A stretch of DNA of 64,000 nt, from the NCBI RefSeq assembly GCF_053078305.1, contig NZ_CP166879.1. One strand, given 5' to 3'. This document shows, piece by piece, positions 27,566-31,389 of this stretch (position 1 is the first letter of the stretch; every line of letters starts with the position of its first letter). The position numbers and the translations under genes are program-made. The notes under the pieces were generated by a model. The model made no database searches, was not told where the DNA came from, and saw only the letters and a list, made by a program, of their open reading frames with translations.

Positions 27566-28159
27566 TTACAGCTGAGAACATATCCCTGGCAGGATGCCGT
27601 TCAGTCGTGGTCGGCCCCGGTTACTTTTTTCGGGAAGCCTGCTACGGCCCAGAATAATACCGTGTTCTTTCTGATCCTGTTTAGCCAGGTAGCTAAGGGC
27701 GTAACGTAAGTCGTCTACCGCAGATTTATCACTATAGTGAATCACGTGATCGATACGCACCGGGTATTTGTCTTTAGCCCGGCAAAGGTGAAAGTAACCC
27801 TCCCCTTCCGTGATCCGCCTCCAGATATCTCCCAGTTGCCTGGATATCTGATAAGAGTTCTTGTGACGTTGCCCATCCAGATAGCCGATAAAATGAATAT
27901 GAAGCCCTTTGTCTGATGTATATTCCATAACCCAGTAATATCCCGCCAGCATCGTTTGGGTTTCACTAAGTAAACGGTATATTTCAATACACATACTGTG
28001 CTTACAGGAATGCCCGAAACTGGGCGTGTCTTTCCTGTAGGCAAAATCAATTCTGAAAGGTAACAGTTTAGAAAAACGTTGAAACAGACCTTCCATGTGT
28101 TCATTCACATCTTTCAGAATCGCGAAATTCATTTCGTAATTGGGATTGGCATTATACAT
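27566..28159 (-). CDS. YagK/YfjJ-family protein (prophage/P4-like island protein)
   Basis: 197 aa; resembles CP4-6/CP4-57 YagK/YfjJ-type proteins; low-GC context. Confidence 0.45.
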   Translation of the reverse strand: MYNANPNYEMNFAILKDVNEHMEGLFQRFSKLLPFRIDFAYRKDTPSFGHSCKHSMCIEIYRLLSETQTMLAGYYWVMEYTSDKGLHIHFIGYLDGQRHKNSYQISRQLGDIWRRITEGEGYFHLCRAKDKYPVRIDHVIHYSDKSAVDDLRYALSYLAKQDQKEHGIILGRSRLPEKSNRGRPRLNGILPGICSQL

Positions 28160-29111
28160 TTTATAGTCCTTACTTTATAAAATTCACAGGAAGAGGGGAA
28201 TTACGTAAATACTGAGAGTACATAAACGCCGTACCACGGCATTAATAAACGAGGTAACCAGCAGTACAGACAACCTGATAAAACTGTTTGGTATTACCTC
28301 ATTACAATGAGGTAATACTTCAGAATACAGTGAGGCTCTCTTAAACAGAGGACCAGTAAGAATTACAATGGCAAAAACACACCTCATAGAATTAAGTTTA
28401 AGGAAGTACCATTCAATCACTTACAGGAAGTAATCTGATCTTCACAAAAGTCAGCTATCGAATAGCCACAGGCAACATCGCTATTAATATTGCCGTACCA
28501 TTAAGTAAAAACAGAGACTCTGCAGAGAGAGCCTACAGATATTTAACCTCACAATAAGAAGATTATTTCATACAGAAAATATTATATTTACCCATACTTA
28601 TAAACTGTAACGGAGCTATAACGTACGAACTAAAGACAATATACTCTAATAGTGTTCTGGTACGTAACTAGTGTTAAATACGAACCAGACACACACTCAA
28701 TGGATTAACTTTCTCAATATTACGCTATGAGTGAGTGACATAATTTACACATAACTAATCCCCATACACCACCACACTGTAGCATATGGGGATAGACGCA
28801 TTACGCACATACAGAATACTCAGCATAAAGAGGAGTGACATTACGATAGAAAGAGACAACATAACAGATAACATAACCCCCATTAATAATACTAATTAAC
28901 CTAAATTATTTATTGAATACGAAAACAATGAAGGCCCCACCTCACCTCAGACTAAAGCCGACAATATCCTGAGCAACAGGATATCCAATAGTAAATAGTG
29001 GTTACACCAGTTATATTTACTGACTGACCTGTACCAGAGTTTTCTAATACAACGCTGACATGGTAAAGGCATTAGTCTCCTCCGCAAGTAGCAGAGGAGA
29101 CTATATGTTAG

Positions 29112-30578
29112 TCAACGATTAAGTCGTTCAGAGGTCAAAGTTAGGTGCGACACACAACGTTTTTCCCTCAATAACCGGTACAACTCTGTTTTGTTCATAC
29201 AGTAAATCCAGTAACCAGTTGATTTTATCCTTTTTCCGGAAACGGTTCGGACCACGCTGTAAAATGTCATTTTTTTCATACAGAGGATCCCCTTCTCAAT
29301 GCAATAGCTTTTTATCCAGTTGAAAAGTTCAAGCTCCTCTGGAATGAGTCGCACAGGTACGGTCAGGGCAGGGTTGTCAAAAGTTAACGGATTAGACAAC
29401 CGCACATACTCATTACCGTACCATATTGCTAATTCTCTCGCCATTTCTGCAATGTAAGGGGAAATCTCCCCCTCCTCACCGCTCGAATGGTAAATAAGTC
29501 CTGCCAGTCTTGCCATATACTCTGCATTTTTAGCAGCATATTCCCGGCAATGTCTTAAAGGCCCCAATCCCCCCAGCTTCGATTCCACATCATTGTAATA
29601 ATCCGTCCAGATTCTGGCAGCCTGAGGAGAAAAGTGAAGGCAACGTCGTTCACCACTCATCGCCAGACTTTCATCAATAAGCTCATTGATCCTCTGTTCA
29701 AACAAATCCTGATACTGTGATGAATAATTATCTCCGGTTATTATCCTTGTCCCCTGCGTTGATGTTGGTTGACACATCAAAAACCTTGCATGATGTCCTG
29801 ACGTTTTCACAAGTTCTTTTTTTCGCGTACAAAAACCTTTGTGGTAAACATCAGGCTGAATCATCGCCGACATCGTCAGTCTTGGCTCCTTCAAATTAAT
29901 TCCGGGAGATGATTTCCTGTCGATGAAAAGAGAACCTCCATCCCACAAAGTGTTAATAATTCCCAGTTTACTCATGGCCCGGCTGTCAAAAATTACCCCT
30001 CCTTCACTGGATACAAGAGCAAAAGAACGATTGCTATCGGAGTAATATTTTAACATTCCCTCTATCGTTGTCTCATTAAAAATTGTTCGACGTATCTGCG
30101 GCGGAACAGGAGACTTATTCAGATGCGTTTCAAGCTCTGATTCTGTTGCCTTGTAATCTTTACCGGCACGAATCTCTTTATGAAATTTTGATTCCAGCGC
30201 TTTTTGTTTTTGCTCCCATATTTCCTTTTCTGTGCTGTAATTCTCAACCAGTTTCGCGTATTCTTCCGCCAGGGCTTCATCCCTGAGATAAAATGCTTTC
30301 ATAAACACTTTATCCACGGTCGTTTTCCTTTCACCAGAATCAGCCAGAATCAGAGAGTAAAGATTAACAGGCCCACGTAAATTTCCAGGTCTGCACACGT
30401 CAATCTGATTCTGACAGGCAATTGAGATCGCTGTTAATGCGGATGTCGCCACCATAGCCAAAGGTGCCTGTGTATTTTTTTGAGTTTCAATTATTGCATT
30501 TCTCACCAGCGGTGGTAGTGCATATATCGGATAAGGATTTTCTGGTGCAAGTAAGCACATAAAAGCCTCTCTTTTCAT
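29112..30578 (-). CDS. YfjI-like DUF3987-family protein (P4/CP4-57-type island)
   Basis: 488 aa; conserved N-terminal block NAIIETQKNTQAPLAMVATSALTAISIACQNQIDV; followed by a perfect 8-bp hairpin at 29075-29101. Confidence 0.55.
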   Translation of the reverse strand: MKREAFMCLLAPENPYPIYALPPLVRNAIIETQKNTQAPLAMVATSALTAISIACQNQIDVCRPGNLRGPVNLYSLILADSGERKTTVDKVFMKAFYLRDEALAEEYAKLVENYSTEKEIWEQKQKALESKFHKEIRAGKDYKATESELETHLNKSPVPPQIRRTIFNETTIEGMLKYYSDSNRSFALVSSEGGVIFDSRAMSKLGIINTLWDGGSLFIDRKSSPGINLKEPRLTMSAMIQPDVYHKGFCTRKKELVKTSGHHARFLMCQPTSTQGTRIITGDNYSSQYQDLFEQRINELIDESLAMSGERRCLHFSPQAARIWTDYYNDVESKLGGLGPLRHCREYAAKNAEYMARLAGLIYHSSGEEGEISPYIAEMARELAIWYGNEYVRLSNPLTFDNPALTVPVRLIPEELELFNWIKSYCIEKGILCMKKMTFYSVVRTVSGKRIKSTGYWIYCMNKTELYRLLREKRCVSHLTLTSERLNR

Positions 30579-30808
30579 TAATGGGTTAGTAAAGTAGCAG
30601 CAACTCCCGCTATAATAGCGAAATAGCTGCTGTTCAGACCTAATGTTCTGAGAAATACAGAATATCTGTAGATCTGATGTTTAATAAACCGATAAGGTTA
30701 ATTCAGTTCATACTGTGTTATTTACCACGAAATATCATTCATGTTTCTCATTCTTAACACCTCCTAAAATTATTTCACTAACACCTTCCCCCCGGTCTTT
30801 TTCCTTTC

Positions 30809-31036
30809 TCAGGAATCAGCCAGAACCATAGTGTAAATATTAACGGGCCCACGTAAATTTCCGGGGTTGCACACGTCAATCTGATTCTGACAGGCAATTG
30901 ACATCGCTGTTAATAATGATGTTGTAGTCATAGCCAGAGATGCTTTTTCATTGTGTTGAGTTTCAATTATTGCATTTCCAGTCATTGATGGTTGCGCATA
31001 TACTGGATACGGAGTATCCGGTTTGATGTAAGACAT
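30809..31036 (-). pseudogene. diverged 5' fragment of a second YfjI-like gene (about 75 codons plus promoter region)
   Basis: MSYIKPDTPYPVYAQPSMTGNAIIETQHNEKASLAMTTTSLLTAMSIACQNQIDVCNPGNLRGPVN is about 65 percent identical to the N-terminus of the adjacent full gene; upstream DNA 31037-31140 is also similar to 30580-30690. Confidence 0.5.
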
Positions 31037-31140
31037 AAATATTTCTTTTTTCGTAATAACTTTCGGTTATAGCAGCTATTTCCGCTACAATAGCAACAAT
31101 AGCTGCTATACAGACTGGATATACTGAAAATACAGACAGT

Positions 31141-31389
31141 TCATCTGGTCTGTATCCAGCAGAGAAGGTCACTTAACAACCATCCGCAAGATTTCTTTCC
31201 GATAGACTTACGTGGTGGAAATGTTCCCTCCCGTTCAAGTTTCCACGCTTGTGTACGAGAAATTGACGTGATCTCATATCGTTCCTTTTCACGTACCAGT
31301 CTGTCGCATTCAATCCCATAAGCTTTCAAAATGACCAGACGCTGTTCATCTGTTAATGGAAGCCACATACTACCCTCCTGATATATCAA
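31141..31389 (-). CDS. AlpA-family phage/island transcriptional regulator (HTH)
   Basis: About 75-82 aa with a C-terminal AlpA-like pattern (KKSCGWLLSDLLCWIQTR); sits directly upstream of the YfjI-like genes as in CP4-57-type elements. Confidence 0.5.
   Translation of the reverse strand: MIYQEGSMWLPLTDEQRLVILKAYGIECDRLVREKERYEITSISRTQAWKLEREGTFPPRKSIGKKSCGWLLSDLLCWIQTR

Follow-up and report, generated by a model that had tools for sequence, protein, structure and literature searches.

Positions 27.2-34.7 kb of the DNA analyzed here (64,000 nucleotides, hereafter the window) very probably form the "head", at the att end, of a tRNA-associated genomic island that is widespread in E. coli and carries one old, inherited 476-bp duplication. 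The parent island family includes PAI-UTI89-serX and the thrW islands. These parent islands are published, and the head module is an ordinary one that is annotated already: hundreds of complete E. coli genomes contain annotated sequences that are 98-99% identical to it, so the discovery value is small. Compared with an earlier note on this DNA, the outcome is corrective: a tRNA-derived border exists, the identity as a P4 satellite is dropped, and the yfjI scar is inherited.

Gene content of the island head

The gene order, read away from the thrW-derived att, is orf198, orf532 (opposite strand), alpA, yfjI, an AT-rich spacer, and a Gp2-type HUH gene, followed by cargo. The GC content of the head module is 0.36-0.43 versus 0.52-0.60 leftward in the window. 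Such a deviant base composition, together with near-identity to a described island, is what is expected of a tRNA-associated genomic island or PAI of E. coli, and both were found. Three minus-strand genes had been assigned earlier as AlpA-like (31141-31389), YfjI-like (29112-30578), and YagK/YfjJ-like (27566-28159), and matches to PHROG, Pfam, K-12 YfjI, and homologs bore out these assignments.

The first gene encodes an AlpA/Vis-family excisionase-type HTH regulator (PGAP start at 31368). It matched PHROG 2790, "excisionase and transcriptional regulator" (E 6e-23), and was 35% identical to P4 ORF88/Vis over 57 aa (tblastn, match at 31144-31314, E 1e-9). The second, yfjI, encodes a putative P-loop helicase/primase-type replication protein (PGAP start in relatives at 30560). 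Its ORF matched Pfam DUF3987 (PF13148) over the full length of the model (positions 1-363 of 364, E 1.9e-83) and was 41% identical to K-12 YfjI over 427 aa (E 6e-115). At 29270-29276 (minus strand) yfjI has an A7 homopolymer where relatives have A8, and the resulting −1 frameshift puts the C-terminal 47 residues out of frame and replaces them. Given its position in a homopolymer, the frameshift may be a sequencing error.

The third gene encodes a Gp2-type/YagK-YfjJ-family putative HUH rolling-circle nickase of 197 aa with a C-terminal RGRPR AT-hook. Its direct Pfam matches were weak (PF23343, E 0.0019; PF11726, E 0.036), and both families were present in homologs at 34-60% identity. The HUH metal-binding motif and the catalytic Tyr of an inovirus Gp2/YagK-YfjJ-type initiator were found in it: H87 and H89 (HxH) and Y157 and K160 (YxxK) are invariant in 16 sequences, including K-12 YfjJ. 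Between lineages the gene has a dN/dS of 0.08-0.33. A PDB sequence search with YfjI and Gp2 gave no meaningful match.

The 952 bp between yfjI and the Gp2-type gene (28160-29111; GC 0.36-0.39) held no convincing ORF and no Rfam match. This spacer is 66-91% identical between lineages. An Rfam scan of 26.5-36 kb (E ≤ 1) returned only a chance miRNA match, and promoter/terminator and tandem-repeat scans of the module and the spacer gave nothing above shuffled expectation. On the cargo side lie two minus-strand fragments. One is rsmI-like and derives from a 16S rRNA methyltransferase gene (27156-27416; NCBIfam PRK14994, E 1.3e-21 on the ORF at 27258-27464); PGAP calls a pseudogene at the collinear position in Z1323MEC0001 and UTI89. 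The other is an IS66-family transposase fragment (27417-27533), so named because PGAP annotates the 117 collinear bp as such in the same two genomes; across it the window is 97.6% identical to Z1323MEC0001. The rsmI-like fragment, junk on the side of the cargo, sets the inner limit of the head module.

Two genes of unknown function lie between alpA and att. The 532-aa product of orf532 (32060-33658, plus strand), which sits between the integrase side and alpA and has a homolog in SCPM-O-B-7615, had no match in Pfam, NCBIfam, PHROG, or PADLOC. The 198-aa product of orf198 (33783-34379, minus strand) belongs to PHROG 7522 and had nothing in Pfam; its gene adjoins the integrase in SCPM-O-B-7615 and is very strongly conserved (dN/dS 0.03-0.05 against that element). 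PADLOC found no defence-system match for orf532, orf198, YfjI, or Gp2.

Judging from their families, AlpA would act as excisionase and transcriptional activator, and YfjI (DUF3987) and the HUH/AT-hook protein would form the replication module of the excised element. The hairpins at 30598-30632 and 31068-31110 and the AT-rich spacer are candidate nick sites for the Gp2-type protein. An extended proposal, which we consider unlikely, is that AlpA, the leader palindrome, YfjI, and the Gp2-type protein constitute an uncharacterized rolling-circle replication module for excised large pathogenicity islands, the palindrome serving as nick site or operator and as a hotspot of head swapping and of the 476-bp duplication. 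If this were true, large E. coli pathogenicity islands could replicate after excision by means of this module. The combination of AlpA, DUF3987, HUH/AT-hook protein, and palindrome is experimentally uncharacterized though abundant, and the window holds a damaged copy.

Relatives, attachment site, and mobility

At least 80% of 27100-32000 was present in 427 E. coli records, and the repeat described below was present in about 1,400 genomes, at a median of two places each. The thrW island of Z1323MEC0001 is collinear with the window (~98%) from 7097 to 34705, where the match ends inside thrW. It has the same alpA, orf532, and orf198 and, like the window, no integrase between orf198 and att. The two differ in that the module of Z1323MEC0001 abuts an intact tRNA-Thr gene, whereas the window has a 16-nt remnant followed by a further island segment, so that its arrangement is tandem or composite, like that of 19SZHZ803Rt.

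The same architecture and junction sequence were found in UTI89, W409, and O157:H7, two of which have a tyrosine integrase. The UTI89 region is 93.7% identical to window positions 27400-31107 and lies within PAI-UTI89-serX (coordinates 1080842-1142536; PMC7545054). The UTI89 island and the O157:H7 island (adjoining ycdU) share with the window the order rsmI fragment, IS66 fragment, Gp2-type gene, ~900-bp spacer, yfjI, and yfjI 5′ pseudogene, as well as the duplication junction and the left cargo (an enterotoxin-like protein and MalY/PatB). Unlike the window, both retain a tyrosine integrase; an unrelated 99-aa HTH gene replaces alpA, the opposite-strand gene is a different one and is accompanied by an IS1, and the chromosomal site is another. 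Similarity to these islands breaks just upstream of the leader-B hairpin.

A complete head, int-orf198-orf532-alpA-yfjI-gp2, is present in an element of SCPM-O-B-7615 that adjoins nfeF. Unit A of the repeat and the yfjI 5′ region of this element are 97% identical, and its gp2 and spacer are 92% identical to those of the window. The element differs from the window by a single alpA-yfjI junction (95-bp gap), by head genes that are only 80-83% identical, and by a yfjI interrupted by IS1.

The border of the head is a remnant of the 3′-terminal 17 nt of tRNA-Thr (thrW) from which 1 nt has been lost (34690-34705, minus strand), recognized by alignment with thrW of Z1323MEC0001. The sequence there, TGGTGC-GATAATAGGA, equals the thrW 3′ end minus one base (16 of 17 nt). 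The remnant separates the head from the next island segment, and collinearity with Z1323MEC0001, W409, and 19SZHZ803Rt ends at it. Thus, the tRNA 3′-end border of an E. coli tRNA-associated island or PAI is present, and Z1323MEC0001 has an intact thrW at the same position. In 278 complete E. coli genomes this flank likewise lies against tRNA-Thr or an att remnant, with an intact tRNA-Thr in most of those sampled. A mismatch-tolerant pattern search missed the thrW att core because the remnant has a deletion; it was found by direct alignment. The earlier statement that no tRNA attachment site is present therefore does not hold, although ARAGORN found no tRNA gene in the window.

The absence of an integrase, also stated earlier, was confirmed within the window. 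When P4 Int, K-12 IntA, and the integrase of the UTI89 PAI were used as tblastn queries, no match in the 64 kb was better than E 0.38, and NCBIfam scans of 28 ORFs found no recombinase. Positions 31389 to 34690 hold only orf198 and orf532, where UTI89, O157:H7, and SCPM-O-B-7615 have an integrase. Lacking this gene, the copy cannot excise on its own; at most, a neighboring element could provide a thrW-type integrase in trans and so allow excision. With the integrase absent and yfjI frameshifted, this island copy is most likely immobile.

The 476-bp duplication

The earlier note described a diverged second copy of the yfjI 5′ region immediately upstream of the gene, and BLAST and a repeat search confirmed a diverged tandem copy of this region and its leader. 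BLAST aligned 30289-30661 with 30765-31136 as a direct repeat with a period of 476. The core found by the repeat search is 288 nt long (30289-30576 and 30765-31052) with the same spacing and 77% DNA identity. The fragment ORF at 30809-31036 is 67% identical to YfjI residues 7-81 (E 1e-35); the "about 65 percent" given earlier was thus about right for the protein, against 77% for the DNA.

The duplicated unit consists of ~30 nt from the alpA 3′ end, the leader between the two genes, and approximately the first 95-105 codons of yfjI. Unit A, the functional copy (30289-30700, minus strand), comprises an alpA 3′ relic of ~30 nt, a leader with hairpin, and yfjI codons 1 to ~96. Unit B, the relic copy (30765-31176, minus strand), comprises the intact alpA 3′ end, a leader with hairpin, and a truncated yfjI 5′ part; the two units join at about 30700-30735. 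The yfjI fragment in unit B is a 5′ pseudogene with a 75-codon ORF (30809-31036, minus strand; "DUF3987 domain-containing protein, missing C-terminus") that ends directly before a GERKT P-loop-like motif. The hairpins are conserved palindromes on the minus strand, at 30598-30632 in leader A and at 31068-31110 in leader B. The latter has 20-nt arms and a 3-nt loop, a DNA fold of −13.9 kcal/mol (z −5.0), and is kept in every copy.

The two copies have evolved differently. Between lineages, the yfjI 5′ part in the A copies has a dN/dS of 0.24-0.42, so that the downstream full-length yfjI, on this ratio, is under purifying selection. The B copies have a dN/dS of 1.3-1.8 and a flat codon-position spectrum, and they are broken differently by lineage: by a stop at codon 15 (UTI89/O157), by differing 10-bp and 12-bp deletions, and by a 1-bp insertion. 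By this substitution pattern the upstream copy is a neutrally evolving pseudogene, and PGAP also calls it one. The decay proposed earlier is therefore real, both in the upstream copy and in the frameshifted yfjI itself.

We consider it very unlikely that the upstream fragment is functional, its 75-aa peptide or the duplicated leader and hairpin regulating yfjI or AlpA (for instance, through a dominant-negative action of the N-terminal domain or by providing another operator). The fragment does persist in about 1,400 genomes, the window version retains the 75-codon ORF, and the unit-B hairpin is as well conserved as the unit-A hairpin despite drift of the flanking fragment. However, the lineage-specific disruptions, the dN/dS and codon-position spectrum, and the PGAP call all argue against a function, the nucleotide divergence of B is within the range of the synonymous divergence of neighboring genes, and the conservation of the unit-B hairpin is accounted for by its position right after the intact alpA.

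The duplication is older than this remnant. The same junction was found in at least four diverged island lineages (~1,400 genomes), including integrase-bearing islands at other chromosomal sites, which makes it an old inherited scar and not decay within this remnant. For the same reason, the local origin implied earlier is not supported. We propose that a single 476-bp duplication would have occurred before the split of several island lineages, after which the upstream copy would have drifted as a pseudogene and the downstream gene would have stayed under selection. The "second YfjI N-terminus" is then an inherited pseudogene scar that is usable as a lineage marker for this island family.

How the two copies arose is less clear-cut. 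An in situ tandem duplication (or unequal exchange between near-identical copies) is slightly favored over a crossover of two diverged elements. The latter, proposed earlier as recombination or tandem integration of two related elements, is possible, if rather doubtful, and nothing gives it preference over in situ duplication with subsequent neutral decay. It would require two CP4-57-like elements (~77-80% identical), in tandem at the same att or recombining, to have left a hybrid in which a deletion or illegitimate crossover joined codon ~100 of the upstream yfjI to the alpA 3′ end of the downstream element. Tandem arrays at att are real: in the window, W409, and 19SZHZ803Rt, another element lies beyond an att remnant. 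Pseudogenized tandem elements have been described for P4-like satellites (PMC8628076). Against SCPM-O-B-7615, the head (alpA, orf532) is 80-83% identical and the body (yfjI, gp2) 92-97%, so the module is a mosaic with its boundary at alpA/yfjI. The alpA dS of 0.53 in that comparison and the unrelated gene in the alpA position of UTI89 likewise indicate that diverged elements do recombine at this boundary.

The substitution data point both ways. A relative-rate test with K-12 YfjI as outgroup, which is too distant to discriminate, gave 18 B-unique versus 13 A-unique nt and 8 versus 3 aa; the difference was not significant, so the asymmetry expected from in situ duplication is not demonstrated, and the lack of a significant excess of change on the B branch fits two elements. 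On the A/B stem, second codon positions are under-represented (19/7/18), which hints that some of the divergence accumulated under selection. The stem dN/dS of 0.60, however, exceeds the 0.2-0.4 between functional copies and equals the value predicted for two copies that started out identical and of which B alone decayed. A and B are also by far each other's closest relatives, the nearest YfjI beyond their lineage being ~40-44% identical. No full-length B-type yfjI was found in the sampled matches from 5,426 E. coli genomes or in 72,556 plasmids and 50,697 phage records. A protein homolog search with the 75-aa fragment returned short fragments only and likewise missed the known full-length YfjI that is 67% identical, which makes it uninformative about a full-length B-type gene. 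Finally, the single-copy SCPM-O-B-7615, which also has the AT-rich spacer, needs no extra events under the in situ model alone.

Comparison with P4 and CP4-57

The P4-like satellite family is defined by seven components, of which at most two losses are tolerated (PMC8628076). Among the components sought here, an AlpA/Vis regulator is present, and a tyrosine integrase, psu/delta/sid, and alpha/epsilon are not. When 13 P4 proteins were searched against the window with tblastn, Vis/ORF88 was the sole match (best other E 0.046), and int, psu, delta, sid, epsilon, and alpha were absent. The best E values for psu, delta, and sid were 1.6, 0.053, and 0.35, all outside the module, and no such PHROG family occurred in the module ORFs. 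Those for the alpha primase-helicase and epsilon were 0.46 and 4.2, and YfjI compared with P4 alpha at the sequence level gave a BLASTP E of 3.1.

It is thus extremely improbable that the module is a degraded P4-family satellite, formerly a capsid-hijacking element. The AlpA/Vis homolog, the low GC, and the tRNA-derived att would suit such an origin, and DUF3987 serves as the "primase" marker in the satellite family PICMI (PMC10803314). However, the unmatched components exceed the tolerated losses, and the integrase-bearing islands of UTI89, O157, and SCPM-O-B-7615 also lack these genes in their annotated flanks. Judged by its predicted genes, the element is not a P4-family satellite. P4 resembles the window in its AlpA/Vis-type regulator and in integration at the 3′ end of a tRNA gene, and differs in having no DUF3987 or Gp2-type gene.

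The earlier note called the remnant P4/CP4-57-like and its gene order that of P4-family satellites. The attribution to P4 fails, as P4 lacks yfjI and yfjJ and only one of its 13 proteins was matched. The likeness to CP4-57 stands: homologs of alpA, yfjI, and yfjJ occur on one strand in the order of CP4-57 (K-12; intA-yfjH-alpA-yfjI-yfjJ). CP4-57 differs from the window by an intA adjoining ssrA, the window having no integrase between att and alpA, by an alpA-yfjI gap of 128 bp without a duplicate, and by a yfjI-yfjJ gap of 152 bp instead of 952 bp. AlpA (34% over 29 aa) and YfjJ (25% over 93 aa) are distantly similar to their CP4-57 counterparts. The two share the order and orientation of the genes, an opposite-strand gene before alpA (orf532 occupying the slot of yfjH), a YfjI that is 41% identical over its full length, and a conserved hairpin between alpA and yfjI.

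Gene content of the island head

From about 27.5 kb the GC content of the window falls to 0.36–0.43, against 0.52–0.60 leftward. On the minus strand this stretch encodes an AlpA-like protein (31141–31389; PHROG 2790, E 6e-23; 35% identity to P4 ORF88/Vis, E 1e-9), a 75-codon ORF matching the DUF3987 N-terminus (30809–31036), a full DUF3987/YfjI protein (29112–30578; Pfam E 1.9e-83; 41% identity to K-12 YfjI over 427 aa) and, beyond a 952-bp AT-rich spacer (28160–29111), a 197-aa Gp2/YagK-YfjJ-type protein (27566–28159). Direct Pfam matches of the last are weak; its homologs (34–60% identity) have PF23343/PF11726 and bear the name "rolling circle replication-associated protein", and the HxH and YxxK motifs were invariant across 16 aligned members, K-12 YfjJ among them. 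These matches and motifs confirm the AlpA-, YfjI- and YagK/YfjJ-like families named in the earlier note, and the module is an ordinary island head, already annotated.

Further upstream, orf198 (198 aa, 33783–34379, minus strand) matches PHROG 7522 and has no Pfam match. Its dN/dS of 0.03–0.05 against L006, the single-copy element of E. coli SCPM-O-B-7615, indicates very strong purifying selection (0.44 for the neighbouring orf532, 32060–33658), and in this intact relative it adjoins the integrase; it is evidently an important gene of the head module. At the other end (27156–27533), a fragment of rsmI (16S rRNA methyltransferase) and one of an IS66 transposase are fused. The pair is kept at the same place in the UTI89 PAI-serX and the thrW island, and therefore travels with the island.

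The repeat between alpA and yfjI

The repeat search revealed a direct repeat of 288 nt with 77% identity and a period of 476 (30289–30576 and 30765–31052), which BLAST lengthened to 30289–30661 and 30765–31136. In the alignment the unit extends from the last ~30 nt of alpA through the leader to about codon 100 of yfjI, so that the arrangement reads alpA–leader_B–yfjI'_B followed by 'alpA_A–leader_A–yfjI_A, A being the downstream copy and B the upstream one. The protein of the fragment ORF is 67% identical to YfjI residues 7–81 and ends just short of a GERKT P-loop-like motif. A second, diverged copy of the YfjI N-terminus and leader, as described earlier, is thus present.

At least 80% of 27100–32000 was covered in 427 E. 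coli records, and the repeat unit matched about 1,400 genomes, in a median of two places per genome. The module is 87–94% identical in the islands of UTI89, W409 and O157:H7, the UTI89 copy falling within the coordinates published for PAI-UTI89-serX (PMC7545054). All three share the yfjI fragment and the junction sequence with the window; one event is therefore older than these lineages. Judged from this shared junction, the duplicate is inherited, and the local origin implied in the earlier note does not hold.

By its sequence, the upstream yfjI copy is a pseudogene, and PGAP annotates it as an incomplete one. In the UTI89/O157 lineage copy B is interrupted by a stop at codon 15 and lacks 10 bp; in W409 it lacks 12 bp and has gained 1 bp; in the window it has its own stop. 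Comparisons among B copies gave dN/dS of 1.3–1.8 with a flat codon-position spectrum, against 0.24–0.42 among A copies; with 71–83% identity for B and 90–99% for A, B is diverging faster.

We lean towards in-situ duplication as the origin of the repeat. The dN/dS of the A/B stem, 0.60, is what would be expected of two copies that started out identical, with drift in B alone, which fits such a duplication and weighs against a crossover joining two tandem elements that had already diverged. Two further observations weigh against the crossover: no full-length B-type yfjI was seen in the sampled E. coli matches, plasmids or phages, where the next nearest YfjI was about 40–44% identical, and the single-copy L006 looks like the ancestral state. 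The functional parts of L006 resemble alpA_B and yfjI_A, the two redundant pieces being the diverged ones. On the other side, the relative-rate test was non-significant, the stem has a deficit of changes at second codon positions, and the heads are clearly mosaic (dS against L006 is 0.53 for alpA but 0.07–0.15 for gp2 and the 5' region of yfjI; the UTI89 alpA is unrelated to that of the window). Owing to the rate test, the stem codon positions and the mosaic heads, the crossover stays a live alternative, if the less likely one, to in-situ duplication. We are confident of the overall picture, an island head with an inherited single-event scar and a pseudogene; this confidence concerns the picture as a whole, not the choice between the two origins. 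The observation in the earlier note stands, and its interpretation was partly right.

A palindrome lies directly 3' of alpA (31068–31110 and 30598–30632, and L002 5909–5938 in CP4-57 of K-12), with arms of up to 20 nt and a DNA fold z-score of -5.0. Its sequence is kept in every A and B copy of all lineages and in CP4-57, despite drift of the flanking pseudogene, and UTI89-type and window-type heads part immediately upstream. Candidate roles for the palindrome are AlpA operator, alpA terminator and HUH nick site. AlpA may act as excisionase and activator, and replication of the island after excision would fall to YfjI with the HUH/AT-hook protein.

Attachment site, integrase and neighbouring cargo

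ARAGORN found no tRNA genes in the window. E. coli Z1323MEC0001 is collinear with 7097–34705 at ~98% identity, and the match stops inside its tRNA-Thr gene, beside proA. In direct comparison, 34690–34705 (TGGTGC-GATAATAGGA) is the thrW 3' end less one base, which overturns the earlier claim that a tRNA attachment site was missing. A 324-bp stretch separates orf198 from this att remnant; it is present in 361 E. coli genomes, 278 of which have it in full length (80% or more of the query). In most of the rows sampled it runs directly into tRNA-Thr; a few have the att remnant without a tRNA, and one has tRNA-Ser. In 19SZHZ803Rt the remnant is followed by another element, as in the window; in that strain the toxin-antitoxin tail of a CP4-57-like element comes next, and the two form a head-to-tail array.

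The reported lack of an integrase was borne out for the 64-kb window: tblastn queries with P4 Int, IntA and the integrase of the UTI89 island gave nothing below E 0.38, and NCBIfam scans detected no recombinase or integrase among 28 window ORFs. The relatives in UTI89, O157:H7 and SCPM-O-B-7615 do have one; in the last the order is int-orf198-orf532-alpA-yfjI-gp2, and homology to the window ends exactly at the orf198 start. An A7 run (29270–29276), A8 in all relatives, shifts the frame of yfjI and replaces the last 47 residues (~50 codons), which explains the raised dN of this copy; this is either genuine inactivation by mutation or an error in sequencing the homopolymer. With no integrase and a damaged yfjI, the window copy is most likely fixed in place.

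Past the att remnant, a second island segment (35527–40507) encodes aspartate ammonia-lyase, a Dcu C4-dicarboxylate transporter, an Asp/cysteate racemase and a HypT-like LysR regulator. Identity to the copies found in E. coli genomes is only ~90%, and the gene set is reminiscent of the AspR-DcuA cargo given for the SRL PAI (PMC7545054). An IS cluster (40831–44240) follows, with one truncated and one complete IS110-family transposase and then an IS2/IS3-family TnpB. Next come (46881–47456 and 49172–55698) an island-borne DolP/YraP lipoprotein paralog (NCBIfam E 1e-88), an endonuclease/exonuclease/phosphatase-family protein, a LuxR-type regulator and a YadA-like trimeric autotransporter; 46194–53164 is 99.5% identical to another locus of Z1323MEC0001 (the DNA query reached only to 56000). 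A 2357-aa ORF of extreme strand composition (55798–62871; GC skew -0.29, AT skew -0.46) is probably a giant repetitive T1SS adhesin, since an HlyD-type type I secretion adaptor (63156–63947) comes next; the antisense 1844-aa ORF (56794–62328) is probably an artefact of repeats. At the left, cdiA/cdiB contact-dependent inhibition genes (1–4310) are followed, within 1–20000, by an FlxJ-family methyltransferase and an aryl-polyene-type fatty-acid-synthase-like cluster (KS/CLF, LolA-like, MMPL, DUF3261, FabG2), which annotations of the Z1323MEC0001 island (L001) and H81 place as cargo of the same island family. In L006 (1971–4331) and in 19SZHZ803Rt (L008; 7977–11313 and 23009–26574), defence cargo lies directly past the Gp2-type gene or in a neighbouring tandem element, for example a TOTE conflict-system primase-domain protein, McrBC, and a Gabija-like ATP-dependent nuclease and UvrD helicase pair.

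Relation to P4 satellites and CP4-57

The P4-like family has seven defining components, of which at most two losses are tolerated (PMC8628076). Vis/ORF88 was the sole match in the window among 13 P4 proteins, and the P4-family satellite suggested earlier was rejected on this count. DUF3987 serves as the "primase" marker of PICMI satellites (PMC10803314), which speaks for a replication role of YfjI, not for P4-family membership. The alpA-yfjI-yfjJ order is that of CP4-57, where the alpA-yfjI gap is 128 bp, without a duplicate. The C-terminal RGRPR AT-hook of the Gp2-type protein (27566–27600), nearly invariant in its close family, is absent from K-12 YfjJ; it adjoins the AT-rich spacer, which CP4-57 lacks.
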